From: Amoebophrya sp. A120 | Lineage: Eukaryota; Protista; Dinoflagellata | Length of the DNA stretch: 64,000 nucleotides | Assembly: GCA_905178155.1 (NCBI GenBank) | Contig: CAJINV010000003.1 | Coordinates: 11,105,737-11,169,736 of the forward strand | Direction: 5' to 3' | Shown: positions 594-64,000 of the stretch, one piece after another | How the letters are laid out: each line of letters begins with the position of its first letter | How positions within the stretch are numbered: the first letter of the stretch is position 1 | Notes under the pieces: model-generated | Databases searched by the model: none | What the model saw: only the letters and a program-made list of their open reading frames with translations | What the model was told of the DNA's origin: nothing | Made by a program: the position numbers and the translations under genes

Positions 594-2771
594 ATGAACA
601 TGGAACGAATGGCCGAGGACTGTCGATATTGGAGAGGCATCCTGGCGTATCGCAAGAACATCAAACTGCTTCACACTGTAAACTTGTGATGCATACAATG
701 CAACACAGACGCGTTTGTCATTGTCTTGCTACACATGCGAGATATTGGGTTTTTCAACGTGTGGTCCCTTAGGAAGCACGGATGGCAGGTTTTCTTTGTC
801 ATGTGTAACGAACTTTGATTCAAAACTTGCATTTGCTGCAAAATCCATAGATGTAGTGAAGCACTTTTTTCGTATGATATTGCGGAGATTCTGCAGGAAG
901 TGGAGACGAGAGACCGAGTTGATGTGGCGCCCCGCGATGATACCAGCCAGGTTCTGGATTATCCTGTGCAAAAGTATCGTACTCGTACTGCAATCATGCA
1001 TTACAAATCTTTTTCTCAAGGTAAATCAGCATTACAGATTTTGCTTCTCATGCTGAGTAAATTTGTAATGCATTTATAGGAGTACGATACTTTTGCAGTT
1101 CATATGGATGCCGCCGTAGCGATGATTGCTAAAGCTGACGACGTGCTAGACAAGGCAAAAGCGTCGAGTGGTGCCTCGGACAAGGTCCATGAGGACAGCG
1201 TGGCACCACGAGGCTGTGATGTAGCGGGTGCTTCACCTCATGCAGTGGCGACGTCCAGCTCGACGTCTGGAGGGTCGTGCGCGACGGCGTCATGTCCTGA
1301 TTGGGATGGTGCTGCGGCAGGAGCAGCTAGGCCTAGTACGACTGCGGAATGTCTTGTTGGACCACGAGCAACCACGACAGCTACGGCACCAGGACGAAAC
1401 CACGTCCACTGCGCGTCTTCATCCAGACAATCCCCGACTCCAAATCTGCTGAGAGGTGCCACGGCTGCCAGCAGTGCGCATAAGAACAAAGCGCAGCGGA
1501 GGAAAAAAGCCCAAGAGGAGGCCGCGGCTGCGAGACATAAAAGCGCCTGTGCTGGGGAGGTGGAGTGTTGTCTGGCCGAGTTGAAGCAGATCAAGACGGC
1601 GGCCGACGCGAGTTTTTGTCGTGCTGTTACGAAATGCCTACGCTTTTACGCAATCGGCCTAGCAGCTTTCGTTGGCACATGCTACGCCCGGAATCATGAC
1701 TTGGATTACGTGGCTCGAATTGCAAAACAAGCCACGGTGGATGCGCTCCGTGACCTCTTTCACCCTTTCACGGCAGCGGGCAACGGTCAGTATGAGCAGG
1801 GCCGTGGTATTATTGCTGCGTTTCGTAACAAGGATCAAGACCCCACTTCAGGCTTTCTGCCCTATCAAGCGGCCCGTAGTGCAGAATTGCTTTCTCGTTC
1901 ATCAGCGGCGTCATCAATATCCCAAGATGAAAATGTAGAACGGGGAGCGGGTGATCGAGAGGAATTGATTGCACCTGACGTGCTTGCTCGTATGGCTAAC
2001 CGACCGGAATACGTACACGCAGCCTTCCGCAGTCACACAACTTCAAGCACGGCAGCAGCTCGGCAAGACAAAGATGCTCTTCTTTCGACGCAGCGCGAGA
2101 GAAATAAGGGCGACGAAACAACAGGCACAGCCATGTTGACTGGTGTGGTCAGTAGCGATCATGAGGAGGGCGGAGAACAAGCGGGCACAGAACGGGGCTG
2201 CAGCGACGGAGGCGATCATGTCTCTGAATCGGATTCAAGCAAGGTGCTGGCGCAACGCGACGGGCATACGTCGATGGCAGCCTGCGCGACTGCAGAGGGA
2301 TCATCAACAAGGTCACAGAATGGGCAAACAGATGAAGAGCGCACGAGCATGGCTGCTGCGGACAAGCAGCTAGTAACCAGCACGTTATTGCACGACTTGA
2401 TGATTGCGTATCCCCATATCCGGGAAATCTTGAAGCTGTACGGTTGCGTGATGCTCATGGCTCTTGGTGCGCAAAACCTGTATCGTTCAGTCAAAGGCGA
2501 ACATGGTATCTTCGGCGCACTGGAACTGGTAAGACAGGAGACACAGGAAGACCAGGGCATGGCTGTGCGTGGTCACGGGCACAGCCATGCCTCCGCTGGT
2601 GATGCAGCTGCACGAGGACCTGCATTCGCAGCAACTGATGACGTTGCTGCCTTTGGATCATCCGGTAGGGCTCAGCAGCCGGTCCGACCAGGGTCGTCTG
2701 CTTCAGCAGTTGCTGCCCTCCCGCGGCGCCCGGGAAAAAACGTTGGTGTCAAGATGCGCAACCGAAAATGA
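594..2771 (+). CDS. Hypothetical low-complexity protein, spliced (approx. exons 594-647, 885-959, 1110-2771; true start uncertain)
   Basis: Removing 648-879 and 960-1104 (each plus one DR) joins MNMERMAEDCRYWRGILA-EILQEVETRDRVDVAPRDDTSQVLD-AAVAMIAK in frame with the 555-aa ORF. No recognisable domain. Confidence 0.65.
648..879. mobile_element. TA-ended introner (degenerate IR)
   Basis: DR TGGCG/TTGCG; TATC...TGCTTCAC versus GTGAAGCA...GATA; internal TTGTGATGC and TTTGTCATG; excision is in frame. Confidence 0.7.
960..1104. mobile_element. TA-ended introner, AAAAGTATCGTACTC family
   Basis: Perfect DR TGGAT; IR TGCAAAAGTATCGTACTC / GAGTACGATACTTTTGCA; excision is in frame. Confidence 0.85.
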
Positions 2772-7170: not shown

Positions 7171-7194
7171 AGAAGCTTGGGCGCTTTGTCAGCA

Positions 7195-11869: not shown

Positions 11870-13934
11870 ATGGACGTCGTAGCCAGGTTGTCCACGTCTC
11901 GGAGTCGCTCACGATCTCCGACATTTCCGAGCACCAATGGCGACATGATTTTCAACCCGTCCCCCTGCTCGGTTGTTGCATCAGTGTCCTCGCAAGCACA
12001 AGGTCGTGTTGACGCAAAGAACTACAACCAGAGCACGGCCACGACTTTCAGGGCAAATACTAACGAGACTACTTCCAGTAAAAAGACTAGAAGAAATAAA
12101 CTTCTGCCTTTTACCGACTACAAACCCAGCGTGGAAGACTACGAGCGATTAACGATCTTCAGCATACAGCAGCAAGAAGAGCGCGAAGATTTACATAATC
12201 AGCGCGAAGTATTGCAGACGGCCCTAATTCCATACACGGAGGACCTGATTCCCTGTTACCACCAATGGATGACGGACCCCTACCTTCAACAGATGACGTG
12301 TTCCGAGCCCCTGTCGCAGCAGGAAGAACGCGAGGCCTGGCGCGGTTGGGTAACAGATCCCTGTAAATTAACATTTCTGATTGCCGTCCCGGATTCTGGG
12401 CGGGAGTATGATTGTCATGATTCATCTGGTGCTTTGCCTGAAGACACGGTAAATGGTGGCGTCCTAAAAGAGCACATCGCGCCGTCTGAACCTGAAGATA
12501 AGGACGCGCATGATAGTGAAGATGCTCATGGTCATGCCACTACATCAAAGCTCAGTCGACGTCCTGGATGCGCACACGTGAGCCGCAAGAAGAGCCCTGT
12601 TCATAAAGGTGGCGACCAGTCCGATGATCTTGCTGTGCAACTTGATGAATCGCTGCAGCTTCCAAAAATAGCCCTTCCCGCACTACCCGGTGAGCAGCCA
12701 GTGAAGATGTCAGCCAGCAGCAAGGAAACAGGTGCCGAAGCTGCAAGTTTCCTGGCCAACAAAGCCATTGCGGGAAGGTTTCCGTTTCCATGCCTAAGTC
12801 GTCACGAACAGATTGAGAAGCTTAACGAGCGCTTCAAGAGCAACAGGTTGGCGAGCAGCTCCGATCAGGTCTCAGCAACGGTCGTATCCTGCGCAACTGC
12901 ATCTTCTGCTTCTTCGAGTTCATCAAGTTCATCATGTTACTTGTTGGATCACTGTGCGTCCCTCCTCCCGTCCTGTCCGCAGCTGCTTCCCTTTCTGAAT
13001 ATTCAAGGTGTCGTCCCAGCTGGTGCCGCCGTCATAGAGCAGCGGTCGCCCGCGATAACGCCAGGCGATTATCCGCGAAAGGGCTACAACGCCCCAGAAG
13101 TGGATGAGCAGATTGGGAAAATACTACAGCGGCTCAATTTTCAGCCTCAAGGACAAGACACAGAGCCTCAGACAGAAGCCCCCCCGAGGACAGTGGCGCC
13201 TTTCTATTTGCTCGACGGAACATCAAACTATATGCGCCATGATGAGCTGGAAATCGGAGCGGCAAGAAGGCCTCTGACAGCTTCTACAGCAGCTCCGCGC
13301 CTCGCTCTGTGCACGAAAAACCTCGTACCATGCGGGGACGTTAATTTGTTTTGGGATGCGGAAGAGCAGATCGCCGAGCTGAATGTAATGATAGCTCACG
13401 AGAAATTTCGGAAAAAGGGTGTCGCGCGCCAAGCGGTGCGGCTGCTGATGTTATCCATCGCAATAAATACGTCTAGGTCTGGAAGATTGCAAGATTTGTC
13501 ATGGAATTTTTCCATCAAGACCCACAAAATGAAAATCTGGAAAAATGCGAGGCTTAGCATTATATATAATTAGGTCCTGCAGCCCCCTGTTGGTAATGCC
13601 TTTGTATTCTGCCGCAGAAATTGCCCCCTTGCAGCATGGTCAGATATGAGCATCTTTTGCAAGTCATGCAGCACAGATTTTTATGTAAGCCTATAATTCC
13701 CCAGGCCCAGCACGCTCACGCATCAGCATCACTTCCACAACTAGAGTAGCCAGACATATTTGCATTCCATAGGTGTCTTACGCTCACCATGCGCTGCACG
13801 TCAACCATTTTCGGGCAAAGATCTTGGAAGATAATGCTGCTTCGATTCGATTTTTCGAGGACAAGCTAGGATTTGTCCTGCACTCGCGCAAGCCAGTATT
13901 TAACGAGGTTTGGTATGACCTGCGAATAAAATAA
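11870..13934 (+). CDS. NAT9: N-acetyltransferase 9-like GNAT protein (exons 11870-13451, 13777-13934)
   Basis: LIPYTEDLIPCYHQWMTDPYLQQMTCSEPLSQQEE...KLTFLI; GDVNLF...AELNVMIAHEKFRKKG. After removal of the introner: LMSYAHHALHVNHFRAKILEDNAASIRFFEDKLGF...VFNEVWY, stop at 13932-13934. Confidence 0.85.
13452..13771. mobile_element. TA-ended introner, GTCTGGGTCTGGAAG family (degenerate)
   Basis: DR GATGT/GGTGT; GTCTAGGTCTGGAAG ... CCAGACATATTTGCATTCCATA; excision restores the GNAT C-terminus. Confidence 0.85.
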
Positions 13935-21243: not shown

Positions 21244-21344
21244 GTTGACCAGTTCGATTTAATGTATCGACTTCTAAAAACCAGTTCGATTTAATGTATG
21301 AAAATTTGTTGACCAGTTCGATTTAATGTATCGACTTCCAAAAA
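21244..21344. repeat. Short intergenic tandem repeat, 3 x ACCAGTTCGATTTAATGTAT
   Basis: Three exact 20-bp cores with short variable linkers. Confidence 0.85.
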
Positions 21345-36104: not shown

Positions 36105-36963
36105 AAAAAAATCAAGGCCTCCCCCAACTTCCCCTCAGTTGATCATGTTGGCGATCCAGAGTACTAGACACAAACCGAAAAAGGAGGTAGCCTGGCTGTA
36201 AGAAATGATAGAACCCAAATTTGTATGGTTGCGCTTTTTGTAATTTATTTGGCTTGTTCCGTGGTGCCTCGGCGTCGGCCTTAACACACAGAACCAAGTA
36301 CTGCCATACTCCACCGGTAGGCTTTTTATTCATTTTCTTGCCTCATAGATCGATGGGGAAGACAAGGAGATGGCGTAGTTGCCCGCTATCATATGATTCG
36401 GAAGCCAGCAGCGACGAAAATGAAGAAGAGAATGAAGAAGAGTGGAGCTCTTATGATACGGCGGGTTCCGATTGATTTTTTCCTATGTTTTCAGAGAAGA
36501 GCACCAAAATCGGCGACAGAAAATTATCCTCAGAGAATTACATCAAAAAAACGAGAACACTGATAACGACGACCCTGGACCAAATTAGACTCGGATGTGA
36601 AAGCTCCGCAGTCTCCTGAGCCCGGCAATCTTCAAGAATGTGAATGTATGTTCTTGCTACTGTTCGAATTTATATTCTTGTTACTCTTCGCGTAAACGTC
36701 TTTATGAAACCCAAAAAAGTCACGAACACGAAATGAGGGGGACGCTGAGCATCAGCAGTGACAATGTCGGTATGTAGTTGACACATTTTACTTGTATTTC
36801 TACACGATTGTGGCACTCTGCCCTGCCACCTCGAGAGTACGGGCCGCCTTGGAAACGACGAACTTCCAACATGGTCTGGTCAATCGAATCATCTGTAGTT
36901 TAGCAAGCGTGTAGTTGTCGGTATTTCAAAGATTTGAATAACAAGGCAAAAGGTGAAGCAAAG

Positions 36964-38332: not shown

Positions 38333-38408
38333 CCAGAAGTACGTGACTCGTCGCAGAAGTTGTAGTCCACCTTTTTGATTTGCACAGCAGAGCTCAACAC
38401 ACAGTAAC

Positions 38409-38801
38409 TTGGGGACGTGGAGACAACTTTTGCCCAGGATTGAGGGTTTTTTTCGCGAATTTTGGGATTACAAGAAGAGGTTCGCTCGCGTCCGTGGAAC
38501 CGACGGGCCGGGCGAAGATCCATTACTAGATAAGTTTGGCCGCTGCGCGCACCAGAGTCACATACTCGCGGTGCCAATGGAACAGGCCCGGAAGATACGG
38601 GATTTGCCGCGGGAATTCCCAATCGAGCACATGGTAGACACGATGATGTTCCAGGAGCGAACGGCGGAAGCGCAGCGCGCCGCCCAGAACGCCAAAATTG
38701 ACAACACCGATCGGGAATCCGACCTCACAAGCGCGGAGCTCTGGACAAAATTCTACGTGCAAGAGAACTCCATCGCCAGACGACTCATACCCACAATATA
38801 A
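38409..38801 (+). CDS. Coding segment, probably the last exon of the upstream membrane-protein gene
   Basis: 130-codon ORF with coding-like GC; splice junction not resolved. Confidence 0.45.
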   Translation: MGTWRQLLPRIEGFFREFWDYKKRFARVRGTDGPGEDPLLDKFGRCAHQSHILAVPMEQARKIRDLPREFPIEHMVDTMMFQERTAEAQRAAQNAKIDNTDRESDLTSAELWTKFYVQENSIARRLIPTI

Positions 38802-46878: not shown

Positions 46879-49800
46879 ATGTCAGGGTCATCCGATCGCC
46901 GCAAAAAGTTTGATTTTGGTTTTGTTCGGGCGAGTTCCAGTGTCGTAGCTGCTCTGTTTTGGAGGTGGTCCTTTAGTATCGTACTCGTCGGTCAGCACGT
47001 AGAACTACGCCCGCCCCGTGTAGCGTTTGCAACTACAAACGTGGACCCAAACAATGTGGGACCGACGGGCGTGCCGACGGAGCAAGACTATGCTTGCATC
47101 TTTGAGTGCGCAGAGCGCGAAAATTTTGCGAGCCGTGTACCGGAGACGACGGACACGGCACGGCTCTACGGCTGGAACTCGTCCTGGAAAGAGCCACTAC
47201 GCGGGCAAACGACTGCAGAATCGCTGCGCAATTGCTGGAATCCCTTCTACCGGGCTGAATGCTGCGACAGTGGCGCACTTGCGCTGAGTTACTGCTACGA
47301 AAACAAATATCAGGGCTGCCGCGACAACGCTACAGAGCGCACATTCCCCGTCTCGCATCTGACAGCGTCGTGCGGCTTCGAGCCGGAGGGGGTTCGAGAA
47401 AACGTCGACGTGGAAGTGCAATTGCAGTTGGTAGCGACGCATCCCCGTGAAGAGCTCTCCGTGGTGCACTTGCGAAAGTTTTTCGATGCACTCGGCCTAG
47501 TTGTGAGCAGGAACAGCAGTACTTCTAGTAGCACGACGGGGGCAACTAGTGGCTCGTCCACGACCAGCCCGACGTCCTCCTTCCTCACACTTCGCGAAGA
47601 CGCGGACTATTGTAGTCTTGGGAAAACGCACGTGGATTGCCTCCGGCTGGGTTGCCAGTGGCTTGATGGCGGGGATGGGGTCCCCTATGCCCAGACCTTT
47701 CGGCGCTGGACGCCCTTGAATCGTTGCCGCCCCTGTCTGGATGACCCGTTCCTCTTGCATGCCGAGCCCTGGAGCGCCGTGCCCGGCTTCAACTGCTACG
47801 GGGATCCTGCAAACGCGTGCACGTGCGTCAAAAACCAGCACCCGGGCCTATGTTCCACAAACCAACACATGCAGGTTGCATGCCCGCGGACCTGCGCGGC
47901 CGAAGTTGCGGGAGCGAGCGGTGCTGTTCTTGCCCTTGCCAGTACCGTCATGTGTTCGGTCGTCAACGCGTCTTCTGTGGTGCGCGGCCTTGTCGGCACG
48001 GCAAAAGGAGGTGGCGGGTCGAACTCAAATCCTGGAAATGTTCTCAGTGGCACTACGACGACTTCTACCCTAACAGAACCTTCGACGTTCGACGGGGTTG
48101 GCAGTGCAGGCTTTGTTGACTTCTTGCGCAAAGCCTTTGTCAACATTACCGGACCCGTTTCCGTAGGTAGCACTACAGCCACGACGCTGCAGGCGGATGC
48201 AGTAGAGGACAGCACCAATGAAACTTACCAGCCGCTCGCTGGAGGCCTCGCCTTGCCCTACGGATTCGAGCTAACCGACACACGTTCGCCGGTTCAACGG
48301 GGAGTCGCTGCTTTGGCCAACTACGTGTCGACAGACTGTCGCCAAAAGATTGATCGCGCCCTGGCGTACGTCCGGACGAAATACGGCACGGTTGACTATG
48401 CCTGTGGCGCCGTGGATGGCGGTGTCAACCTCTGCAGTCTCACGGACGTGCAGATCGGCGTGAGCCCGCGAAGCGCCACGTTCGGTGACCTGCAGCGGTT
48501 TTTCTGGTGTCAAGACACAGCCCAGTGCCAGAGCCAGCAGGGCCTGACTGCGCCACCCTACTGCAGCTCGCCACCATGCGACTCCTGTGCGACCCTCACA
48601 GTGTCGGCGCCAGTATCCAGAGTGAAAACGCACCTGGCGGTAGTCGTGACCCTGATTTGTGACCACAGAGCACACCTACAATGACTAGCGCAGGCCTAAA
48701 AGAAATATATGCGGCTCTTCATGCACAGCCCCGCGACTATTAGTGTTTTCTCATGCTGTTAGCTGGGGCGGCTCAATTTGTGACGCTACTGCGCGGCGCC
48801 TCGCCAAGAACAATGAATGAGAGCAATATACATAGATAGACCTAGCAAGAAAGCCATTCACCTCACACATAAGAGCGGGAGCCTTTGACTTGTGTAGCAA
48901 AACTGACTGAAGCTGAAGCTCTGCGGGTACATAGTTTTCACTCAGGATAGGGAGTCGGCGGCTGTGTGGGCTGGGTCGATACGCACTTCAACAAGCGAGC
49001 GGCCACTCGCGACGACTCCGCCCCGCTGGCCACGCGCGCCATCTCGGAGTGGGCAGCTCACAACAAGGGGCTTTGTCAGGGACCCTGTGCCGGGGATGCG
49101 GATTGTATGCACGGGCTCAAGTGCTTCAGCGATCTGCCGGCCGGAGTGGTCACCCCGGGTTGCGTGCTGGCGCAGCACCTAGACGCGTCGACTGCGTTTT
49201 CCGTGTGCGCGCCACCCGCAGGAGAAGACCTGCCAAACTTCTCGGTGGTCACCGGGGTCCCGGTGCTGGACGCCACCCGGGAGGACGTCTGGCGTTACGC
49301 CTACTGCAGCTACCGACACAACTCCAGCGCGGCTTGCCACAACGTGCCGGCCCCTACAGGGTGCTCCCGGCCGCCCTGCGACGTTTGCCCCGTCGCGAAA
49401 GAGGAAGAGCCTGCGTGCGAGTACGGACCTCTGAACGACACGCAACTGGTAGATGCAGAATGCTTGGCGGAAGTAAACCGGGTGCGTCTCGGGCAAGACG
49501 TGTCCTACCTCGGAAACGAGTCCGTCTGGCGCAATGTGACTGGGGTTTCGCAGAACAGCAGCACGTGGGCCGACGTGGCGCGGCGCTTGCGCTGCCACTA
49601 CCTGTCGGCGGGAACAACAAATAATGCGAATAGCGTTAATACGCAAGAAAACACGAACTGCAGCAAGATTGAGCTTTTCTCGTGCTCTCACCCGCCCTGT
49701 GACACGTGCAACGCTTCGCTCGGGATGCAGTACGCGCCACCGGAAGCGCAATGCGCGCTACGGAATAACTTTCTCGCTGAAAACGCGACTACACTAGTCG

Positions 49801-52800
49801 ATGTGGTCCTCGCAACACCATTGGATCTCGTGGTGACTACTTCGCCGCAGCAAGCGGAACAGAACGGTCCCCGAAATTTGCATGAGCATGCACAAGGACA
49901 GCAACCGTCAACTAGAAGAACCGAGATCAACTACCAAGAAAATCTACATCGCGGAGCTGTGGTTTTGCTGCCCGATACGAGGAACGCGGCTGACCAGCAC
50001 GATGCACAAACTTTGCAAAATTCGAAGAGAGCTCTGGACGCCTCACACACAACGACACAGTCTGCGGCCGAACCATGGTTCACCTGCTTGCGGAAAGATG
50101 TTGGCATGGCGGAGGCCGATCCCAGCGGGCTGTATTTAGACGTGGAAGAAAATGCGATTTTATGCAACCTAGCTGATCTGCAAAAGGGGGGCAACGACGA
50201 GGAAGACCACGATCATGCTCACGGCGTCGACCAGCAGTCCACGGCACAACCACCACGACGGCGCGCAAGGGCGTTGAGTGGCTACCAGTGCTGGGCCCAA
50301 ACGCCTGCAGACGAGAGCTTCTGTGAAGACGCATCACAACCGAAATTTACCGACCAAATGCTGTGCGACCAGGAGCCGCAGTGTCACTGGGGCCCGGTGG
50401 GCAACGACGAGGAAGAGGACCAGGGCCACTGCTTCGCGATTGCTGCAAGTGATCAAGCGTTCTGCGAGGATTCCGGCGCACCGCACTAGTATCCTGTGTA
50501 AAAGTATCGTGGACCTCCACGTACATGCGAATATTAGCATTGGTAATAGCCAAAAGTATTTTTGTGCACGGTAGCCCATTTGCTTTTGCAATTCGCTCCA
50601 AATCCAATTTTGAGGTTTCTAATTTGTTGTCAGTGCGATTCTTAGAATTTGCGATACTTTTACAATGAATGACCACCATGACGAAGCCATGTGTAACAGC
50701 GAGCCGCAGTGCGAATACCGCCAGGACAGCAGCAATGCTGGAGACTCGAGCTCCTCGCCTGCGCCTAGCGGCGATGGAGGCGGCAGCTGCTATGGCCGCT
50801 CCAGCATGCATCAGCAGTATTGCGAAAGTTTTAGTCACAGCCAAGCTGATTGCAATAATAATGCGCAATGCGAGTACCGATATACGACCACAGATTCCTC
50901 CTCTTCGACCGAGCCGCCGGCAACGGCAGGCGGATCGGGATCCAGCACACCACATTGCTTTGCGATTAACCCCGGGAATACCATGGACCAAAGCTTTTGC
51001 GAGGATCCGCAGGCTGCTCACTACCACGACGAGGCTATGTGCAACAGCCAAACAGGCAGGTGCGAATTCCGAGCAAACGACGGAGGGACAACCGCCTCGA
51101 GCTCTTCCGCCCCAGCGCCCCCAGGTGGGGCAGGTAGCTGCTACGGAATTCAGAGCATTGATCAGACGCACTGCGACGGTTTTAGCCACAGTGAGTCCGC
51201 GTGCAACAGCGAAAATCTGTGCGAGTACCGTTACACAACTGGGACTGCTTCCTCGACGCAGGCCCCGCATAGCGGCGGTGAAGCGCATTGCTTTGCGATA
51301 GATGGCACGGCGAACCCAGCGGACCAAACTTTTTGTGAGGATCCCCAAGCCGCCCACTTTCACGACGAGGCTATGTGCAACAGCCAAACAGGCAGGTGCG
51401 AATTCCGAGCGAGTGACGCCGGGACAACCGCCTCGACCTCTTCCGCCCCCACAACTCCGAGCAGCGGGAGCTGCTACGGTATCGCTGCAGTGGATCAACA
51501 GTACTGCGACAGCTTCAGTCAGAGTGCAGCGGAGTGTAACAACCATCCTGCTCAGTGCGAGTTTCGCTACGCAGGAGCTTCGACGTCCGGCCCGACCTCA
51601 TCGACGACCACAACCACGACCCCAATACCGGGGCCGCAGCTTCCCGATAATCCGCACTGTCGCTGTCGCGCGAACCCCGGCACCAGCCGCATCGAGTGTC
51701 AGACCTTTCCCGTCCGTCGCGTCGAGGACTGCGCCGAACTTTGCTACATGCGCTCTGCCGCCGTGGGAGTTTCGCCTGCCCAGGCGTGCGGGGGTTGGGC
51801 TGCTAGCGTGAACGTGACAGACACGGAGTTTGCGTCATTCGGAAAGCAGCACAATGCTAGCGACCAGGTCAATGTCATGTGCTCTTTGTATCGAGCCTAC
51901 AACACGACAGCGCTGACCCGGTTCACCGGTAAGGTGCCCTCGACAGGACCTGCTTCTTCTAGTGCAACACCTAGCCAACAGCAGTACCGGAGGGTAATAT
52001 CCGGCCCAGCAAACTGCACGCCCCCGGAGTTCGCGTGGCGCGGGCGGACGGGCGTGTGCGACGCGACGCAAGCGGGCTATTTTCAAGAAAACACAAAGGA
52101 GGTTGTGTACATGTCCGGGTTTCCCTTGATGGGCCACGTAAGTATCCCCGACTTTCTGCTGCCTGACTACCCGGAAGCGCACCACGGCTGTGAGAACCAG
52201 GATTGCAGCTCCACGAGAACGTTTTACGCCACCAAGCCGGAAGATTGCGCGTTCGCTTGCAACCTGTTTGGTGGTTGCATGCGCTACATGGTGCGGACCG
52301 CGTCGAAGGCAGACTTCGCGCACGACGGCAACGTGACCTGCAGTCTGCTGGGAAGCGCGACCACTTCCTCCGAGTTTTCCCTCGATGTTTTTGTCGCGGA
52401 CAAGCGGTGTTACCCGCCGAGCGTGGGCTGGGAGCTATGCATTTTTGCAAAAGTATTGTATTAGTCAGTTGTAGAACTAGAAGTTGTTGCATAATTATGC
52501 CGTTTCCAGCTTCTTCTTGCGGTTGCGAGAACGAGCAGAAACAATGCATATGTATGCGGCAGATTTATCTAAGAGCCGAGATTTGCGTTTGTCATGAATC
52601 AAGATGTTCGAAAATTTTACACCTGACTACTACGATACTTGTTTTGCAGTGGATAGAGGCTGGCGTACGGTGATTTTGCGCGGCTGCACGGAAACAATCG
52701 GCACGACCGGGACGTGCTCGGCGTGTACAATCTGACATTCGCGGTCGGGTTGAATCGCCTGTCCTCTGCGGAGGTGGAGTCGTTCTGCTCCGGGACGGAC

Positions 52801-55800
52801 CCTGGCCGCTTCTGGGCGGACCAGATTTTGGACAAGTTTGGTGGCGCCATACAAAGTCCAATCCCGGAGATTACAGACGGTCGCTCAAGCCTCGCGTGCC
52901 CGCTGCGCTCGACGAACTACGAAGTTATGAACAGTAGCAGCGTGGTGGGTGGACAGTCGGCCACGGATGGCGGCCAGCAGCAGGAGCAGCACCACAGCAG
53001 TGAATCCGCGTTCCTGCGGGAGGTTGAATTTTTGCGCGTGCGCCACCAGAGCATCGCTTCAGCGCAGAAGTTCCTCATCGCAGGGGGAACCACTAGCACC
53101 ACCACCACTTCGCACTGGCCCTGCGTTCTGCGCCGCGGAGCCTTGGAGCCTCGAAGACACACGTGGCCGGGCATCGTCCCGTCGTACTTCTGGACGCTGT
53201 TCCTTTCTCCCTTCGGGCTGAATGCAACTCTAGATCATGATGAAACGGGTAGTACTAGCGCTACACCTACAAGCAGCTCTCCTTCTCCAACACAAACCTC
53301 AAGCACCAGTTCGAGCGCGGAGGACCGCGACAGCCAGCTGTATCGAAACATTTCGAAGAGCTTCGAACTTTGCCGGCCGCGCATGGCGGCTCCGTTTTGC
53401 GAGCGCGTCCGCATCGGCGATAGCCCCGGGAAATCCGTGAAGACGGTCTACCTCCCGGACTCCTTTGCGGCAACAAGTTGCGATCCAAGCCAGGTTTTTG
53501 ACGCTGTGTACGGTCCGGAGCAGCCCGCCAGTGGCACGTGGGCTCTAAACCAGTACGGGCGCTATCTGACGGTCAATCGCACAGACAGGACAAACGGGTG
53601 GAGCCAACACTATTCAGTGCAGTGCTGCTACCCCACCCACTGGTCTAGCACGACACCCAACGAAACCTTGCATACAGAGCAAGTTCCGGGCCAACACCTC
53701 TACCGTGCTGTGCTGGACTCGTTCGCACAGGATACCGTGTACGCTGATCAGCGAGTGACGCCCACCACCACCAACGCTGACCTGCTCGGCACGACGCCTA
53801 AGCTTCCGGCGAAGCTGACCTGGAAGTTCGGCGTGCAGATCTACAACGGCGTCAGAAAAGCCATGTTCACACTGAGGCTCGCGGAGATCAAAGCCTATGC
53901 CTACGACAATCCAGAAGAGGAAATTCCTTTGGTCTTCACGGAGGCGCGGCCGAGTTTGCTCTACAACCAGGGCGACTACGCCGTGGATTCAAACCAGCAA
54001 TCGAGCGCAGAAGTGCCTCCCACTTTTGGCTACATGGAGGAGGACGGGATTTTTCTGGAATATCGGGGGGAACTTTCCTACCACGGGCAGCTGTTGGGTT
54101 CGCTGGTTTTGCTGTTCTCGGAGCTCCCCGTCAACGTGAAGGTCAGGGTCTTTGACGCCCTGAACCGGCCCGCGGATTTGATGGGACAAACGAGCTCACC
54201 ATCGACGTACCAGGCGACGGGTCCTTTTTTTCCCGAAAAAGCTTTTACCTCCTCTTGGCCGTCGACTTCGATCAGTGGGCAGCGGGTCCCGCACACGGAC
54301 GCGTATCTCCGGAGATTAGCGGACGGTAAAAACGCCCAGTACGTGGAGCTCAGCCTCAAGCTACGTGCGCGATCTGTCCCAGCACAGATCTTCTTTCTGA
54401 AGGCTGTCGCGGGCGGCGGAACTGAGCCTCTCCTTGCCGTGCGGCTCCGGGAGGCGAGCATGGAGCTCGTAGATCCCAGCAGCGGGGCGGTTTTGGAGCC
54501 CAGTTCTCTTCTCGAAGATGAGGAAAATCAAAATGCGGGAATGAACTACAAACTGAACTTCTACGAATTCACAGAATTTTATTTCCTCTTCACAACGACG
54601 ACGGATGAGGATGACGGTGGAGGGTCCTCCACCTCGTCCACGACAGGTGGCTCAACGACTAAGGCGAAGTTTCAGATAGGCCGGGGAAAAAGCGCTGTCT
54701 TCACAAGAACGCATATTGTTTCGAAAGCCTACGAGCTGAACGATCTCGATTTGCAAAGCACAGCGCTGCTGTTCGAGGTGGCCAGTGTGGCCGTGCGGCT
54801 GGATGATCCGGAGCCTTGCTGCGAGCCGTGGTTCGCTAACCACGTGTTATACGAGGGTCTCTATCACGAAAGGGACGCGACCACTGTCCTCCATGATCCC
54901 TTCACCCAAAAGCGGTGGCAGTACGACGGCTGCGCTGACGAGGCGCGATGGCACGCAAGCGATCGGTGGTACTTCCGTGACACCTACTTTCACCTGCCAC
55001 TCTACGCCCGCGCGTGTGGAATCGGGTTTCCCCGAGACGCGTACCATTTGATGAGGAATTTCCGAGAGCACAACCTCGTGCACCTGGACTACGACGTGGT
55101 CACCAGCGACCCGTGGGCTGGTACGGTATCGGAAAGCTTTGAAACTCGGGTGCTCGACACGCAAAGCGGTACGGTTTTCGAAGGCCCCGCGGCGTCGTTG
55201 AACTTGACAAATTATCTGGAGAATGTTGATGCCACGTCTGGCGTCACGCTTGTCACGTTGGGCAACCAGGGGAAGTGGAATGATCCCTCCGCGAACAGTC
55301 CTTTCCGCGTTAGCGTTTCGGTTCCGCAAGACATGCTGAACCTCCAGAGACCAGTATGCAGCGAAGCCGTAATTTTACCGCACACAACGACGTCGTACTA
55401 GAGAAATGAATTTACCTACTTGCATCCATAGTATGGCCCTTCTTGCTGGGACGACGAGCAAAATATATTCTCAATGTCATACAACAGGAGAAGTGGAAGT
55501 TTTCCACCTTTCCGTGCGCTGTAGTCGTGTGTCGTCGCGTGTGGTAAATCTAAATTTCTATTGCATAACAGCAGGAGAGCAACTACAAGTCTACCTTCCG
55601 ATTGACCTACAATACTTCCAATTACGGCGACGGCTGGCAGACCGTGGAGAGAGGCGACTTCTTGGGCTATGTGCTCGCCGCCGCTTTGAAACGCGCGTTG
55701 CAGGACGCTGCGAACTTTACCGCGGCCCAGCACTTCCTGTCCGCGGTGAAAGCCTCGCTTTACAACGACTCGCTCGCTGCCGGGCAGTTTCTCCCGAGTG

Positions 55801-58800
55801 CGGAAAAGCAACTTGCTTCCATCACGCACGAGCGCTCGGTGTACTACGACCCGCAGGGCACCACGTGCCTCCACGACTGCCTGCACAGGTACGAAACCAC
55901 CGTCGAGGAGCAACTTTACGGCGGGTACTCGAAGCCGACCTTTCCGTACACGGTCGGGAACCACACGGCGCACAACCGGGCAGAGTTTTTTCGGTACTGC
56001 CTCCCGGAAGTTGCAAACTTGAACGAGAACCTGACGCTCGCGACAGTGCCGCCCCAATTTGAAATGGACTCGCAGAACAGCACGCTGCGGGGTCTCTGCT
56101 GCCAAAACGGGTACTTGGCGGAGGTGATGCAGTGCTTTCGGCGCCGGTGCGATCCGGCTGGGGACGCGTTCTTCAACCGAGGAAATCCAAATCGGTACCC
56201 CTACTCCGCACCGTACGACAGCCTGTGGCGCCGCGCGTCCACGCGGACGTTCGAGGACCGCGATCTGGAGCGCAGCTTCTCCGCCTATATCCAGGAAAAA
56301 ACACCCATCCCCATCCATTTTTTGCATAACAGATAGTGCATTTTATGCATGTTTTCCATGACAAATTGGATGGGGATGGGTGTTTTTTCCTGGATAGCCT
56401 ACCACGCGATCGAACGGGGCTGCGACATCACGTACCAAGACCTTCTATCAAATGCAAAAATGTCTGGGTCTGGAAACTTGTGATGCTGTGTGGCGTATCA
56501 TGAGGAGGCGACAATTGCTGGCTCAGCATGACAAGTTTCTGAGCTTCTAGGTGTTGCCTATTCTGCATGACAAACTACGTTTCTGCTTGACAGAAAAGTG
56601 GGGCTCTTTGGTAATGTGCATGACAGATTTAAGAGTCATGCCAGACACGCATGACAAACTTGCATTCTTCCAGACCCAGACATTTTTACGTTTGATACCT
56701 TCGGGAAACGAGCAACGTCACGCTTCTGGCGGCCAGTGGCGGACAGGGGATGACGGGCGTGGTGAAAATTAGGGTAAGCCGGGTCTTGGCGGAGAACCGG
56801 TTGCTCAACGTACAGGTGAACGGTGCCACGGAAATTTTCACGCAAGGGCATCTGGATTTCATGCGACTGTCCATCTGGGACACACTGGTGAAAAAGTACC
56901 CGGCTTGGTACGACGACGGCGTGTTTGACGTCAGAGTCGACAACCCGCTGAATCACGTGGAGCTTGGACTCGAGTACGGCGGCGCGAGCGAGACGAGTGA
57001 CCAGAACGGCTTCTCGGAGACTGTGTTGGATTACAACCTCAAGACGTTGATACTCGGCCGGCTGCCAAGTCAGGCCGCCGCACAGCTGAAGATAGACTAC
57101 GCGACGAACGAGCACGGCTTCCACCTGCGCAGCGAGTGGAGCTCCCTCGGGTGCTTCCTCTCCGAGGTGGTTGAAAACTGGCTTGCTCCTCCGGCTGGTG
57201 CGGCAGCAGCCTCATCTGGACCACGGCAGCGAACACTGCAGGCGAGGGTTTTGACACAACAAGCCGAGGAGACTGGTGCGGAGGACGTTTCCGCGGAAAA
57301 TGCGTGTGCTCTGGCGTGCGCTAACTTTCGGTACTTTGCGCTGAGAGGCAGCAGCACGTGTGTGTGCGGCGATGCGTTTGGATCTGCTTTCGCCGGATCG
57401 GCGTCGGTGCTGAGTGTCAACCACACAGAGTGCGCGTGTCGCGCGCCGCAGCACACGCCCGCGACTGACAGCAGCGCTTCTTGTTTGTACCGCACCGGTT
57501 TCGGAGCGGATCAGGGTGCGCTGCGCTGGAACTTCACGTTTCCGCAAAGTAGCGCCGGATACTCCACCCTGTACCACACCGCGCAGAGCCGCCAACTGTT
57601 TGTTCCCCGAACCACGGACACGAGCTGCCTGCAGGAGCAGTGTTCTGCGGAGCTCTGGCACGGATTTGCGCGCCTTGGGATCGGAGACATCCAGGGCCAC
57701 GGGGGAAGGATATACAATTTTTCAGCGTATGCAGGTGGCGTCACGCTTCTGGACACCAGCCAGCGTGCGCTTTTTGACCACCCCGACCTGTTCCAGTTTT
57801 TCGACCAGGCCAGCGCCTTCCCGCTGTCGTACCACTCCGAGGGGAGCAGTGCAATGTCTACCGCTCTGGGCACGGTGATGTCGCCGGACCATTTCTTCCG
57901 CAACCTCGATGTTTGTCTGAACGTGACGAACACCACGGCCCCGGTACGATTCGAGAACTGTTGTCCTTTGCTATCCGCGTACAGCGGATGCGTTCTCGCA
58001 AAGTGTCGGCCCAATGCGACCTGGCGCTATGGGTATGACACGACGACCTTTGACGCCGAGGCGCAAGAAACTACACCGGGTGTCGGTGCAGTCACGTGGC
58101 CCGCAATCTGGCCCGGGATCGCCAGGCAGTGCCAGTTTTCCACCCCGGAAAACATGACCAAGCTGCAGAACCACACCTACCTCGGCTTTCGCGAGCGATT
58201 TGGCTTCTTCCCGCCGCGAGTAGACGTGGACGTGAGCCGGCGGTCCCGCGAAGAGTACCGACGGATCTTCACGGGCTTGTTCGCACAGGAACTGCTGGAA
58301 AGCAACCAGCTGCAGCTGTGGCAGAGTGTCTACGTCAAGAACGTTGGCGTCACCGCGTACGCGCGTCCCGTTTCCGGGTTGAGCTACAACCAAAACGGCA
58401 CGGCCACCGGCTCCGCGCCACTCACCGCGGAGTATCTGCTGGTCGACGCCCGAACTTTTGCGCGAGACCCGGGCGAGTTTGTGGTAGATGGGGCGGAGGG
58501 GGATGAAATGGCCCAGCACGGAATGCGGTGCGACGGGGGGGCGTTTCCGGGTGTGCAGCTGGAACCGCTCTCGGAGCTGGAGTGTGCGCTGCCCGCCGTG
58601 CGCAATTTCGCAGACCGCGCCATTCCTGAGCTGGTTCCAGAAAGTGGGGTAAGTGTCACGTCGCCAACAATGACGCTGTTTCGTGTGAAGCACTTCGCAT
58701 GCGAGTCGTGGTCGCTGGAGCTCATATCGGACGCCGAGCACTGCATTGGCGAGGCTAGCGCAGCAAAAAGTTGGGCGTCGTCAAACAACCTGCAGGTGGT

Positions 58801-61800
58801 GGGCGGTCGCGGCGTCACGGAAACGGACCCGAGGAACCCGCGGGGCTGCTATTGGGACGAGGAGGGGGAGCAGTTCCGCTACAACCTCGCGCCACGCACG
58901 CCCTATGACTTTCGGCTGACAACCCCACAAAAGTGGGTCCTGTGTAGTTCATCCTCGTCGCCAGGTGACAAAACTTGGCCAACGGCAGTCACCGACGACG
59001 GCAGCCCCATGCCCGCCAACCCCCAAGACTACCGCCCACAGGGTTGCCTGGTGACGCATCATCAAGACACGGTCACTATGTGGTACAACCAGTTCGTGGG
59101 CAACGCGCCCCAGAACAGCATGCGGCCCTCCTTTCCGGAATGGGTGATCTGCCGCGTGAAGAACGACCAGTTTCTGCAGCAGGTCGTTGACGTCGGGTCC
59201 GACGGATCCGTCAACGAGTTGCCACGGCAGGCGCTGACTGTGTCCAAAGACTACGGCGCGGTCACGCTCAACCGCACGCGGTTCGGAAGTCACGGACGCT
59301 CCGACGCCGCCTGGAACTTGACGGTTGAATGGTACTACGGGCCGTTTCGCGAGCCCTTCAGCCCGACCGCGCAAGAAGCTTTGAACGTGCTCGCATCCGA
59401 TCGCGCCGCGTTGTTGTCCAGGTTGAGCAGCGCCACAACTAGTACTTCGTCATCCTCGAACAACAACCCGGAGGTGTACAAAGATTTTCTCCCCTACACA
59501 GCCCAAAGCAACAGCGGCGCTTGCTTCGCGCCCAACTTTGTATCAAGAGCGGAGACGTGGGTGACGAGTCTGTCGGACGAAGTGCTGGTCCAGGTGCTTC
59601 GTGGTGATGCGGAAGTGCCATCTCTCACAACCTGCGAGCAGCGTTGCTCTGAACAGCATCGTTGCCGGTACCTTTCTTACTTCAACGAAAACGACGAGGC
59701 CCCCGCTGGAACTACGACCACAGGGGGAGCCACGCTGTGGCTTGCGCCGGGGCCCCTCTGCCTCTTGTGGGCCAGGTGCAATAGTACCGCGCTTTTCCGC
59801 GAATCGCCCGCCGATCTGATGGTGACGAGGCGCAAGCACTCGGCGGTCGTTCCATTGCCGCGCAACGCGACAATCTTCAGTGACAGCCCAAGCAGTGGTG
59901 CCAGTACTAGAAAAGCGTGGTTTACGCTGAACACCGAAGATCAGGAGACGCAGGAAATTTTTCTCTGGCGGGAACTGGTTCCAGAGGACACGTGGGTGGT
60001 CCCAACCACGAGCACGTCGACCACCACAACCACGACGCAGCCGTACCATTGTCTGCTGGTGCACTGCCTGTACAGCACTTCGCCCGATGCGGTAGACTGG
60101 GTGCAGGTCTTTCCCGAATTCAGCAACCACTATACAGAGAGCGTGACTTACACAGGCTTCTACGAGCGCCGGTGGCATCTTGATGAAGATGATGCCTCGT
60201 CATCCTCGTCGAGCACGACTCTGATGCCTCCTGGAGGCGCTCCTGCCAGTGGTGCTCCACCACGACGGGAGCTCGGCCTCCCAACAACGACAACTAGCGC
60301 GCCCCCGCCAGCGAATCTTGAGCTACTCAGCCTCCAAGACGCAAAGGTCGAGAGCTTTTCGCGATGTTTGTTTCCGTCCATCCGGCCGGAGTGCTGCGAG
60401 GCGGCGCGGCAAGTTGCGGTCTGTTACGCAAAGGCGCAACCCAGTCCGTGTCTCGGAGGGCCAAACGCCGATCTGGAGTTCAACACAACAAGCTTCATGT
60501 CGACGTGCGCGACAACCACTTCCACCAGCACAACAACCACGACACAGCCCTACGACTGCTTGCTGCAACATTGCCTGTACTCCAACACGATTGACTGGCC
60601 GCAACTCTACCCGAACTTCAATAACGACTACGAGGAGAGTCCCCTCTATGCAGGTTACTACGAGAGAAAATTTAGCACCACCACAACGCATGTGCCAGGG
60701 ACCACGCCCGATCCAGCGAGTAGTACCAGCGACGGACCTCCGCGATTGCTGTATGAAGACAGTTCTTCTAGTTCGCCACCGCCGGTGGGTGGTATCGGTA
60801 TGACCTCCACTATGGGTCCCCCGCCTAGCTATCTACTGCGCTTCGAAGACGCGCAGGTGGAGAGCTTCTCGCGCTGCTTGTTCCCCTCGATTCGGCCAGA
60901 ATGTTGCGAGGCAGCTCGACAAGTTGCGGTTTGTTACGCAGCCGCGAGTCCGAGCCCCTGCGTCGGAAATACAGATCGGGAGTTCAACACGACGAGTCTG
61001 CTGTCTACCTGTGCGACAACCACAACAACGACTACAAGCACGAGCACAACGACAAAGCCGCACGAGTGCCTCATTGTTCATTGCCTGCACAGCGGCAGTA
61101 TCAATTGGCGACAGGTTTATCCCGATTTCTCGAACCAGTTTGAGCAGAGTGACACTTATGCAGGGTATTTCACGAGACTCGACGCCATCGCGACAACGAC
61201 CGTGCCGCCCGCTTCAGCCGGCACGACGAACCCCCCCGACTTGACGACCTCTGCGCCCCCGTCCTCTTCCCCCGCAGCTCCAGGTGGTATAGCGGGAGGA
61301 ACCAACACGAACAGTCCCACGACCACGACGTGGGGACCGCCGAGCCATTTGGTCAATTATGGGGATGCGATCGTCGAGAGTTTCGAGCGGTGCCTGTTTC
61401 CCTCGATTCGCGCAGAATGTTGCGAAGCGGCAAGGCAGGTCGCAGTCTGCTACGCGGACGCGAGTCCGAGCCCCTGTGCTGGAAATTCGGATCTAGAATT
61501 CAATACGACCAGCCTGTTAACAACATGCGCCACGACGACCAGCACGACCACGACGACGACCAAAGCGTTTGACTGTCTGCTGCAGCATTGTCTGGCTTCT
61601 AACGCAGTTGATTGGCTACAGGTGTACCCGAGTATGCATTGCACGATGAAGAGTGTCGTACTCGTAGTCGTACTAGTGGGAGATGCATTTTTACATACGA
61701 GCTTTATTTCGAAGAACAAAAGTGAAATTTGTCAGGAGAGGTAGAAGCAACTACAGCAATTAGTACGACGAGTTCTTCTACGATACAACTTTTGCAATGC

Positions 61801-64000
61801 ATACCGAGCTTCAGTAGCGAATACGGGGAGGATGGTGCCTTTGCCGGGTACTACTACAGGAAATTCGACACGACAACGACTCCGAGTCCGGAAAGTAGTA
61901 GTATAACGACACCGGACCCGTACTCAACTACCCCGGATCCGCTCGCCAAGAGCGGGCCGCGAATGTTGGGGCTGCCCAGTCATTTGTTAAGCCTCGCAGA
62001 CGCTACGGTAGAAAGTTTCTCACGCTGCCTTTTTCCGTCGATTCGGCCCGATTGTTGCGAAGCAGCGAGACAAGTTGCGGTGTGTTACGCGACGGCGAGC
62101 CCAAGTCCGTGCATGGGAAACAGCGACCGGGAGTTCAACACTACAAGTCTCATGACGACTTGTGCCACCACCACGTCGACCTCGACAACGTCGACTTCCA
62201 CGACGACAAAAGCTTTCGACTGCCTGCTAGTGCACTGTCTCTATTCGAACGCGGTGGATTGGGTGTCAGTCTATCCGAGCTTCGGCACAGAGTACGAAGA
62301 GGACGCTGCATTTCCGGGGTACTACGAAAGAAAATTTTCAACCTCCACGACAAAGCCCGACTCGACGTCGACCCCGGATCCAAAGGCGGCGCCTGACTCA
62401 ACCTCCACCCCAGATCCAAAGGCGGCGCCAGACTCCGGGTCCTCTTCCTCCGCGCCGGATCCCTATAGCGGCACTTCGTCTCCAGACCCAGCTACTTCTA
62501 CGCCTGATCCCAAAGCCGCACCAGACGCGGGCTCGTCGACACCCGATCCGTATGCTCCTCCTCCTGACGGGGGAGGTGGACCGCGAAGCCTTTACGAAGA
62601 TCAAAGTTCGTCCTCTAGTCCTCCTCTCTCCACGGGGCCGCCGACAACCGCCACAACCTCCATCGGGCCGCCGGGCCACTTGCTGAGCTTTCAGGACGCG
62701 AAAGTGCAAAGCTTTTCGCGCTGCTTGTTCCCCTCGATTCGCCCGGAGTGCTGCGAGGCTGCGCGGCATGTTGCCGTCTGCTACGCCAGTGCCAGCCCGA
62801 GTCCGTGTATGGGAAACGTGGACCGGGAGTTCAATACCACAAGTCTCATGACGACGTGCGCCACAACCACGACCACGACTACCACGACCTTGTTCAACGC
62901 CTGCACGATCTCGTCGAAAAATCCGTGCGGCGCCTCGCTGCCACTTCAGCCGGCCCACCAGTGCTCGCCCGCACTGGGCACGGAGCGTTTGTACACCTGT
63001 GCATGCGCCCCCGGACACGAGGCTGTGGAAACAGCCTATAATGTCGACACACACGGAACGGGGTACGCGTTCGTTCCTGGTTCGACCTACACGACCTGCA
63101 TCGACGTCGACGAGTGCGCTGTTTCTGATGGCAGTTCACCTCCGTGCGGCCCGGCGGCGGACCAGAACGTCTGCACGAACTTAGTGGGTGCCTACCGGTG
63201 CGCGTGCGGGCCCGGCTACGAGCGGCTTCGGGACGGTGCGACACAGGGGGAGCTCTGCGTCCGCGTGAACGAGTGTGACCACAATCCCTGCGGCGCTGCT
63301 GGCTTCAGCGTCCGCTCGCAAACGCAGCTGACACACACGTGCGACCAAACTGCGCAGCCTGGCAACTGGCGCTGTACATGTGCGAGCGGATATCAGTCTT
63401 CCGGTGGGGATTTCCCGCACTGCGAGGAAATAGATGAGTGCGATGCTGTCCCTAACCCCTGTGGCCCCAGTCCGCCAAACAGGTGCTACGACCTGGTTGA
63501 TCATTACATGTGCCAGTGCGAGGGCGGGTTTGAACTCCAGTGGCAGCAAGCGAACAACGCAGCTGTGCGGGTTTTGGAAAGAAGTCCGAAGATGAGTATG
63601 AATACAGCACCCTTTCACTTTGATGAACAAAAAAAGGACACACATGATCTTCAGAGTAAGAAACACAAGAAACGACCAGACCTACAAACTGGAACGCGAC
63701 CACCTAAGTCGAGAGACGCAAGACGATTAGCAAGGCGTTTGCAGGCGTTCGAGAGGCGGCAACATGCACGAAGAAAAACCTCATCCCCAGGCGCGCATTT
63801 TGCAAGACGTTCTCCGTCGCACTTGACCACGAGTACTAGAGGCAGAAGCGATTCGCCTCGGAGCCGGTTCGGACTTCCGCTGCTCGAGGACGCTTTTCAG
63901 CGGTCTTCCAACCGTCCGCGTGCTCTGACTCCCTCCGCCACCGACTCGTGTGACGACCCCAACTACTACGATCCGCTTTTTCCCGGGCCGCCGTACGTTG
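46879..64000 (+). CDS. Giant Cys-rich modular secreted/surface protein, >5000 aa, 3'-partial (approx. exons 46879-48613, 48955-50488, 50676-52435, 52661-55354, 55573-56287, 56402-56445, 56703-61632, 61809->64000)
   Basis: Seven insertion removals fuse five large ORFs and an open frame to the window edge. Hydrophobic N-terminus; ShK-like CSTNQHMQVACPRTC; PAN/apple-like EDCAELC, EDCAFAC, TCEQRC; WSC-like SLGCF...CALACANFRYFALRGSSTCVCGD; calcium-binding EGF CIDVDEC...CTNLVGAYRCACGPGY and CEEIDEC; Thr/Ser/Pro linkers. Confidence 0.85.
48614..48949. mobile_element. TA-ended introner, probably now spliced as GT-AG (48613-48950)
   Basis: IR TATCCAGAGTGAAAAC / GTTTTCACTCAGGATA; flanks GCCAG/GGGAG create G-TAT and ATA-G; both excision modes are in frame. 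Confidence 0.85.
50280..51570 (+). repeat. Alternating Cys-rich coding repeats
   Basis: HCFAI..DQSFCEDPQAAHYHDEAMCNSQ..CEFR alternating with SCYG..Q.YC.SFSHS..CNN..CEYRY; 3-4 copies of each. Confidence 0.9.
50490..50671. mobile_element. Introner, AAAAGTATCG family (diverged DR)
   Basis: TATCCTGTGTAAAAGTATCG / CGATACTTTTACAATGAATG; flanks ACTAG/ACCAC; excision restores the repeat motif HYHDEAMC. Confidence 0.85.
52436..52655. mobile_element. TA-ended introner, AAAAGTATYGTA family
   Basis: Flanks GGAGC/GAGGC; TGCAAAAGTATTGTATTAGTCAG / CTGACTACTACGATACTTGTTTTGCA; restores GWELAYGDF. Confidence 0.85.
55355..55567. mobile_element. Old introner, now compatible with GT-AG splicing
   Basis: TATGCA...TTTACCGCAC / GTGTGGTAAA...TGCATA; GT at 55354 and AG at 55571 or 55574 are in frame. 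Confidence 0.65.
56288..56396. mobile_element. Minimal 109-bp TA-ended introner
   Basis: Perfect DR GCCTA; perfect 30-bp IR TATCCAGGAAAAAACACCCATCCCCATCCA; restores FSAYHAIERGC. Confidence 0.95.
56446..56697 (-). mobile_element. TA-ended introner, 252 bp, inverted copy of 42915-43166
   Basis: Perfect DR CCTTC; restores YQDLRETSNVT in frame with the ORF at 56750. Confidence 0.95.
60040..62890 (+). repeat. Five tandem copies of a Cys-rich module separated by poly-Thr
   Basis: CLLVHCLYS..DW.QVYP.F...Y.GYY.R [variable linker] DA.VESFSRCLFPSIRPECCEAARQVAVCYA..SPSPC..N.D.EFNTTS...TCATTT. Confidence 0.92.
61633..61803. mobile_element. TA-ended introner
   Basis: Perfect DR CCGAG; IR TATGCATTGCA / TGCAATGCATA; restores YPSFSSEY, matching the intron-less sister repeat YPSFGTEY. 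Confidence 0.93.

Follow-up and report, generated by a model that had tools for sequence, protein, structure and literature searches.

The stretch of DNA analyzed in this study, hereafter the window, comprises 64,000 nucleotides (nt) of contig CAJINV010000003.1 of Amoebophrya sp. A120, and all coordinates given here are window positions on the plus strand. Nine plus-strand genes, among them a NAT9-like GNAT gene, a LisH/CTLH gene, genes for an SRPK-like kinase, a SET protein, a membrane protein, and a BAR/UBA protein, and a very large gene that begins at 46798, are interrupted by 27 introner elements of 109 to 388 bp, found by strict and relaxed scans, reading by eye, and RNA. These elements are the introner system already published for this organism (Farhat 2021, PMC7789003). 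What we add to the published system is a fixed register of removal, 1 nt before and 4 nt after the element (−1/+4), with selection on intron positions +2 and +3.

The inventory was drawn from the two scans, seven elements read by eye, and one element (37912) revealed by an RNA joint. The strict pattern, TAT...ATA between two copies of a 5-bp direct repeat, matched 15 times in the window, and 11 of these matches had at least 13 of 25 complementary terminal bases; 30 block-shuffled controls gave 2 to 9 strict matches each, but only 0 or 1 with a comparable terminal inverted repeat (TIR). Strict matches at 16865, 26136, and 26609 had no TIR and were discounted as elements, the last of them overlapping the GT-AG intron 26606-26901. 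A first-pass annotation of this sequence had counted 24 insertions of 109 to 385 bp in eight genes; the system it described is real, and the numbers of elements and host genes, and the upper length, have grown to those given above. It had also described nearly all insertions as starting with TAT and ending with ATA, and indeed the 5′ end is TAT in 27/27 and the 3′ end ATA in 23, ATG in three, and ATT in one. The 5-bp duplication that it placed at the flanks is exact in 12 of the 27, carries one to three mismatches in 14, and is missing from one (37912).

All nine reading frames (596, 579, 521, 1156, 1123, 323, 366, and 568 amino acids [aa], with a ninth of 5228 codons that reaches the end of the window) are open once 13 ordinary GT-AG introns are taken out along with every element and 5 nt of adjoining sequence. 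Excision of an element with one repeat copy had been said to restore the frame, which held in every gene with the proviso that the LisH/CTLH (one), SRPK-like (seven), SET (one), and BAR/UBA (four) genes need GT-AG introns removed as well. A GT/GC-AG register of any kind exists in only 2/27 elements (52436 and 55355). At 18395, 24246, and 56446, six registers each offered zero GT or GC donors and zero AG acceptors, exactly as the first-pass annotation had stated.

The connection to Amoebophrya introners, also proposed there, is supported because proteins of the window equal A120 proteins. Exon 1 of the BAR/UBA gene matches P0001 (Amoebophrya sp. A120) at 100%, and its spliced model equals P0001 across 568 aa; the spliced LisH/CTLH model is identical to P0095 (labelled A120) over 521 aa. 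BAR/UBA orthologues align through the element junctions. A homologue search using the SET exon returned no match, so that no deposited protein compares with the SET model, and an Rfam search and a TIR pattern search of viral contigs gave 0 matches each. The elements display the traits of miniature inverted-repeat transposable elements (MITEs), namely TIRs, a fixed-length target-site duplication, both orientations, and no coding capacity. The published inverted-repeat start TAT-N7-AAA is matched by the TAT of every window element and, at positions 11 to 13, by an A frequency of 88-96% across 254 copies taken from another assembly, described below.

Removal was followed in public sequencing runs, of which 7/11 were compared with two 19.9-kb stretches of the window. 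Runs X3-X6 are contigs from one sample; no run is on record as RNA, so the type of these was guessed as RNA, and we judged them to be RNA here since they skip GT-AG introns. The raw-read runs contributed 55 reads in X9, lying only on element ends and internal repeats, and 0 reads in X10. Joints in X3-X6 were listed across six elements (37410, 37912, 38221, 42542, 42915, and 43477), and the BAR/UBA contigs also skip four GT-AG introns. In the SRPK-like gene, an RNA contig has 1751 nt between two pieces; the model predicts 1751 nt, with a frame of 1156 aa, when seven GT-AG introns and four elements are removed: 22499..22802 (exact repeat CGGGG), 23016..23313 (GATGA/GACGA), 24014..24184 (exact GACGA, interrupting an ALDEVKLL motif), and 24246..24509 (exact TCCAA, predicted intron AT...CA). 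The SET contig likewise has 74 nt between pieces, equal to the 74 nt predicted on removing 31052. Removal is thus shown for 11/27 elements, six by joints and five by exact length, and there are partial hints for 13452, 19988, and 32080. The remaining 13 lie outside RNA cover or outside the listed joint rows (X1 repeat noise). DNA run X1 has a flat depth of 26-30x outside repeat-bearing bins, and a single 13,078-bp DNA contig passes through 31052 and 32080 with no difference from the window. Because RNA-type contigs lose the elements alongside GT-AG introns while DNA contigs retain them, removal takes place on RNA, unlike excision in the manner of internal eliminated sequences (IESs).

The position of the cut can be read where the two repeat copies (bases D1 to D5) differ, since the transcript then reveals which copy stayed. 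At 31052..31392 (repeats CTTCG/CTTGG) the RNA piece begins at 31397 and retains the left D4, which places the cut at or after D4. At 38221..38441 (TAT...ATT; GAGGA/GAGGG; joint from 38215 to 38442, four ambiguous letters) and 42542..42849 in the BAR/UBA gene (GCGGC/GCGGA; joint from 42536 to 42850 in X3-X6) the RNA retains the right D5, which places it at or before D4. The element at 37912..38171 has no direct repeat, and its joint (37910 to 38176, zero ambiguous letters) defines the intron 37911-38175 unambiguously as C-TAT...ATA-CGGG; its removal rules out the direct repeat as the guide to the cut. Joints or pieces at 13452..13771 in the NAT9-like gene (GATGT/GGTGT; an RNA-type contig piece begins at 13774, giving a cut at or after D2), at 37410..37650 in the membrane-protein gene (GCAGC/ACAGC; joint from 37405 to 37652), and at the decayed BAR/UBA element 43477..43680 (AGGAA/CGGAA; joint from 43472 to 43682) are compatible with a cut after D4. 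Translation agrees: a cut after D5 would drop the SET histidine at 32080 and bring stop codons into frame at 36100 and at 50490, and an internal repeat, HYHDEAMCNS, at 50490 is restored by D3 or D4 cuts alone. All 15 mismatched-repeat cases permit a cut after D4, the four tight RNA junctions intersect only there, and the joints listed in X3-X6 across six elements include no alternative with a 10% share. The informative junctions therefore agree on an intron of the form N-TAT...ATA-NNNN, and the precise removal with fixed geometry that had been proposed from sequence is borne out by RNA joints, exact lengths, and this register.

A cut at −1/+4 leaves one duplication's worth of sequence behind, so that the coding sequence is restored at any target site. 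It also places the element's own T and A on intron positions +2 and +3, which are shared with host donors: these read GTA in 14/14 modelled GT-AG introns of the window, followed at +4 by C in seven, T in four, A in two, and G in one. The same 14 introns have G at +5 in only one case and acceptors that are mostly ACAG, a weak fit to the usual U1-type consensus that is consistent with the reported lack of U1 in A120. Among the 27 elements, G occurs at +1 in eight and AG at −2/−1 in three, so that they do not show the GT/GC-AG ends of U2-type introns. An excess of G at intron −1 (14/27 in the window) was gone in the larger set, where 82/254 resembled neighboring positions. At 18395, 42915, and 56446, some registers read CT...AC, which is GT-AG on the opposite strand; junctions may be put there by aligners, and published borders could look variable as a result.

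Larger-sample counts were all obtained from a second public assembly (contigs JACKZZ01), in which the TIR pattern matched at least 139 loci (420 kb); among the longest matches listed there, we found elements only and no window exons. When 352 TIR elements were chosen on criteria blind to the repeat, 262 proved to have an exact 5-bp duplication, and other lengths scored 0 to 38. A scan symmetric in both ends yielded 364 elements, of which 254 could be oriented by applying a coding model to their flanks after joining (18/20 confident window calls correct, leave-one-gene-out) and 110 were left out as unoriented. Among the 254 oriented copies, T at +2 and A at +3 are invariant, and the mirror positions −5 and −6 vary seven and four times (0 versus 11, p=0.001); 9/11 of these variants lie in elements oriented like other elements of the same locus. 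At the loosest orientation cut-off, the 5′ TA is broken in 2/345 versus 13 at the mirror (p=0.007), one exception, L095, reading G-CAT. Position +4 varies seven times in the 254, and five of the seven are TAC, as in the commonest host donor (GTAC, 7/14). Across positions 3 to 45, only position 45 was nominally asymmetric (p=0.03). Strand-specific conservation is thus limited to +2/+3. No target-site preference was seen. The elements at 42915 and 56446 belong to one 252-bp family in opposite orientations (233/252 identical), which has about 50 copies among the 254, the best 97.6% identical, with orientations split 26/25. No autonomous partner was found among the at least 139 loci, where the longest TIR pair measured 1031 bp.

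End-to-end pairing of at least 0.3 is predicted in 24/27 window elements; 13452, 37912, and 43477, each with RNA-supported removal, have no predicted terminal stem. Selection for an RNA stem was not detected, G·U and A·C mismatches numbering 212 versus 206 in 226 elements and 44 versus 41 in the window, although structures predicted for protein-free RNA count for little as evidence, and the youth of the elements lowers the power of the G·U comparison. Of the structure-guided splicing suggested by the first-pass annotation, the fixed geometry is supported; a purely structural guide is supported only in part, given the absence of a G·U excess, the three stemless elements, and the dispensable repeat at 37912. 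The motif TGTNATGC has 40 matches in 6,807 element bases, one in the rest of the window, and none in the 14 GT-AG introns; it occurs in both orientations, for example in 24246-24509, 42915-43166, and 56446-56697, at a median distance of 42 nt from either end among second-assembly elements. As a required branch point it was rejected, six RNA-supported elements having no exact copy and its placement, about 42 nt, being symmetric from both ends. It is more likely a DNA-level subterminal motif, a candidate transposase-binding site common to otherwise unrelated families. A branch A at −7 showed two variants versus seven at the mirror site in the 254 oriented copies, a difference that was not significant.

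The observations lead us to favor, as somewhat better than an even proposition, a model in which the TAT...ATA elements are transposon derived and the host spliceosome, reading U+2/A+3, cuts them at a single fixed offset. To judge by their anatomy, the elements would have been left by a non-autonomous TIR DNA transposon inserting with a 5-bp stagger. The host spliceosome would remove them at −1/+4, picking the 5′ site through U+2 and A+3, which contact the U6 ACAGAGA box, and would have lost its need for G+1 and the 3′ AG. Distance from the element end would place the 3′ site, whether measured by a stem, by a protein bound there, or by an A of the terminal ATA acting as the branch point. Because both element ends read TAT inward, either orientation of insertion gives a removable intron, and with a 4-nt offset that fits the 5-bp duplication exactly, an insertion would become a seamless intron wherever it landed and whichever way round. 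Structural work on the yeast P complex shows U+2 paired with U6 A51, G+1 with G−1, and A−2 with the branch A (Wilkinson 2017, 10.1101/212811); given the contacts described there, joint loss of G+1 and AG with U+2 kept is the pattern expected of a relaxed spliceosome. We hold as evenly balanced the stricter statement that the A120 spliceosome reads U+2 and A+3 only, ignores G+1 and the 3′ AG, and applies a 4-nt ruler from the element end, with the TTA elements of strain A25 as a second fit.

Several points weigh against the spliceosomal model. Four RNA junctions, all of a single sample in a single study, fix the register exactly, and they were read in contigs rather than reads and with the run type guessed. 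G at +1, in 90/254 oriented copies, is no more frequent than at neighboring flank positions, and AG at −2/−1 is at chance (18 versus 16.3 expected in 254); a normal spliceosome should tolerate neither. The asymmetry at position 1 alone has p=0.016 and fails correction for the 45 positions scanned, and the strand comparison depends on an orientation model that was right in 18/20 calls, left out 110/364 elements, and met 2/345 exceptions at its loosest cut-off. A lariat, a branch point, and dependence on small nuclear ribonucleoproteins are predictions of the model, and any nuclease cutting N|UA would yield the same asymmetry.

That last point leads to a non-spliceosomal route with the same RNA-level offset, in which the paired ends are recognized by a protein, possibly a domesticated transposase or an endonuclease together with a ligase, that cleaves at N|UA on one side and 4 nt beyond the stem on the other, a scheme proposed for euglenid nonconventional introns. 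We regard it as unlikely, though it has the use of neither G+1 nor AG, the predicted end pairing in 24/27 elements, the reported failure to detect U1 small nuclear RNA in A120 (PMC7789003), and the circular, lariat-free exit of paired-end euglenid introns (PMC11282704) on its side. Against it, the two constrained bases coincide with host donor positions +2/+3, which are TA in 14/14 GTA donors, the stems show no excess of G·U over A·C, and the three elements without a predicted terminal stem are nevertheless removed. The layout of direct and inverted repeats is also reported in 15% of canonical A120 introns (PMC7789003), and the element at 55355 is a GT-AG intron in the same −1/+4 register.

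Two other explanations depart further from the spliceosomal model. Ciliate TA-bounded IESs are small insertions of transposon origin that interrupt coding DNA, carry TA at their ends, and are cut from DNA so as to leave one TA, and the first-pass annotation had offered DNA excision of this kind before transcription as an alternative. The TIRs, fixed-length duplication, and TA termini are all traits of DNA elements, the DNA side of our comparison rests on one run (X1), and 107 further joint rows lie beyond those listed. Even so, we consider the idea scarcely credible: the contigs that lack the elements also lack GT-AG introns and are processed RNA, DNA contigs traverse the elements unbroken at flank depth, conservation follows the direction of transcription, 37912 is removed precisely without any repeat, and the junctions keep a variable 5-mer instead of TA. 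It is also possible, although improbable in our estimation, that splicing is real and the −1/+4 register accidental, the cut floating within the repeat or being rescued by RNA editing or cryptic GT-AG sites. Sites relative to the hairpin have been described as variable (PMC7789003), 12/27 repeats are exact and hence uninformative, and the cut is bounded tightly by only four junctions. These four meet only at D4, which all 15 mismatched cases allow; the listing for the six elements has no second joint at a 10% share, the constraint on +2/+3 is strand specific as the −1/+4 rule predicts, and possible editing was reported near only 4% of A120 boundaries (PMC7789003).

The published account of A120 introners describes TAT-N7-AAA inverted repeats, direct repeats of 3-5 nt (5 bp in its example), lengths of about 240 nt, families, and RNA-seq support (Farhat 2021, PMC7789003). 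Our elements agree with it in organism, inverted repeat, boundary repeat, RNA-supported removal outside GT-AG, and families, and differ in having one offset, a strictly 5-bp duplication, and a strand-specific +2/+3 constraint; the published text gives no terminal signature, calls borders variable or unknown, reports U1 as not detected, and states the splicing mechanism as open. Reviews from 2024 still call the sites "highly variable," and among the openly searchable sources on introners and nonconventional introns that were covered (PMC12130899, PMC9860276, PMC11282704, PMC11453091, PMC12005148, PMC6221363, and 10.1101/2025.08.15.670264), none states a single offset or a +2/+3 constraint. The modal A120 repeat position and Figures 3, S21, and S23 of Farhat may already contain the offset. 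Table S4 of that paper lists NT-xx for 9/9 top A120 motifs and TT-xx for 9/9 A25 motifs, that is, T at +2 in 18/18, and A25 elements begin TTA-RR (PMC7789003). This second set of elements thus appears to put T and A at +2/+3, with border placement inside the repeats uncertain.

Comparable systems, so far as the cited sources describe them, differ in instructive ways. Euglenid nonconventional introns (Guminska 2018, PMC6221363; PMC11282704) are likewise MITE-like, with paired ends, junction repeats, no GT-AG, and a longer unpaired 3′ tail; theirs pair +4..+6 with −8..−6, whereas the A120 TIR sets +2..+4 opposite −7..−5 and has 5′ bases in agreement with those of the host donor. The euglenid introns leave as circles. 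Introns of Fritillaria borealis (PMC11282704; Soo 2025, 10.1101/2025.08.15.670264) also derive from TIRs and target-site duplications and are removed by a U2 spliceosome of shifted specificity, but they keep terminal dinucleotides of their own (AG-AC, AG-AT) and U1, while in A120 positions +1 and −2/−1 are free and U1 is reported undetected. The introners with TIRs described from Micromonas and Aureococcus (PMC9860276, PMC11282704) resemble ours: they are non-autonomous DNA transposons, and their splice sites sit, with respect to the target-site duplication, where removal restores the mRNA; unlike the A120 elements, which have no target-site preference, they carry or recruit GT/GC and AG in a target-dependent manner.

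The published picture of variable borders without a signature gives way here to a single rule, testable on reads that already exist. If the rule is true, tens of thousands of A120 introns could be re-annotated and the splicing question would narrow to two bases and a ruler. It would also mean a natural spliceosome without the G+1/G−1 and AG contacts that structures show to underlie 3′ site choice, and would account for the spread of a transposon through exons without target preference.

The other elements complete the inventory. In gene 1, 648..879 (TGGCG/TTGCG; predicted intron 647-883) and 960..1104 (exact TGGAT; 959-1108) are supported by the frame only and lie outside the RNA-aligned stretches. 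The LisH/CTLH gene, whose model is that of P0095, has four, all with exact repeats: 18395..18705 (TCACC; predicted intron CT...AC), 18761..19020 (CGTGT), 19779..19950 (GGAGT; offset TIR), and 19988..20234 (AGTTC; an RNA-type contig piece begins at 20234). The second SET element, 32080..32464 (TAT...ATG; CAGCT/CGGCA), interrupts a QHS motif, and an RNA-type contig ends at 32078, its left D4, a weak hint of removal. The boundaries of 36100..36487 (TAT...ATG; TCTTT/TTTTC; frame only) are the least certain. The third BAR/UBA element, 42915..43166 (exact CCTGG), has a joint from 42908 to 43166.

The large gene is without X3-X6 cover, and its frame is open after all seven of its elements are removed: 48614..48949 (GCCAG/GGGAG), 50490..50671 (TAT...ATG; ACTAG/ACCAC), 52436..52655 (GGAGC/GAGGC; a GC-AG register lies one base to the left), 55355..55567, 56288..56396 (exact GCCTA; 109 bp), 56446..56697 (exact CCTTC; predicted intron CT...TT), and 61633..61803 (exact CCGAG), the last outside the RNA-aligned stretches. 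From 46798 to 64000 it forms a single frame of 5228 codons or more, rich in Cys and Thr, in which internal repeats occur and, by eye, EGF-like segments near the end; the product is likely a large surface protein.

The GT-AG intron 40319-42505 of the BAR/UBA gene (2,187 nt; spliced in X3-X6) contains nested foldback elements and no convincing open reading frame. Within it, 110-bp TIRs at 40457-40566 and 42263-42372 have TTA on both sides, which we take to be a PIF/Harbinger-like duplication; 40752-41547 is a 796-bp TAC...GTA element with the 5-bp repeat CACAC, probably related to the TAT family, and 41556-42166 is a long imperfect palindrome. A further GT-AG intron, 16279-16658, is spliced in X3, whose contigs span 14941-17501, a stretch without a protein-coding model here. 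Short degenerate repeat arrays, GCTTCGAG-like, GGCACCGGCTTGGCCATGATCT-like, and T-rich, occupy 1-420 and 3540-7380; 140-460 resembles 7170-7420, and the arrays are satellite or subtelomere-like.

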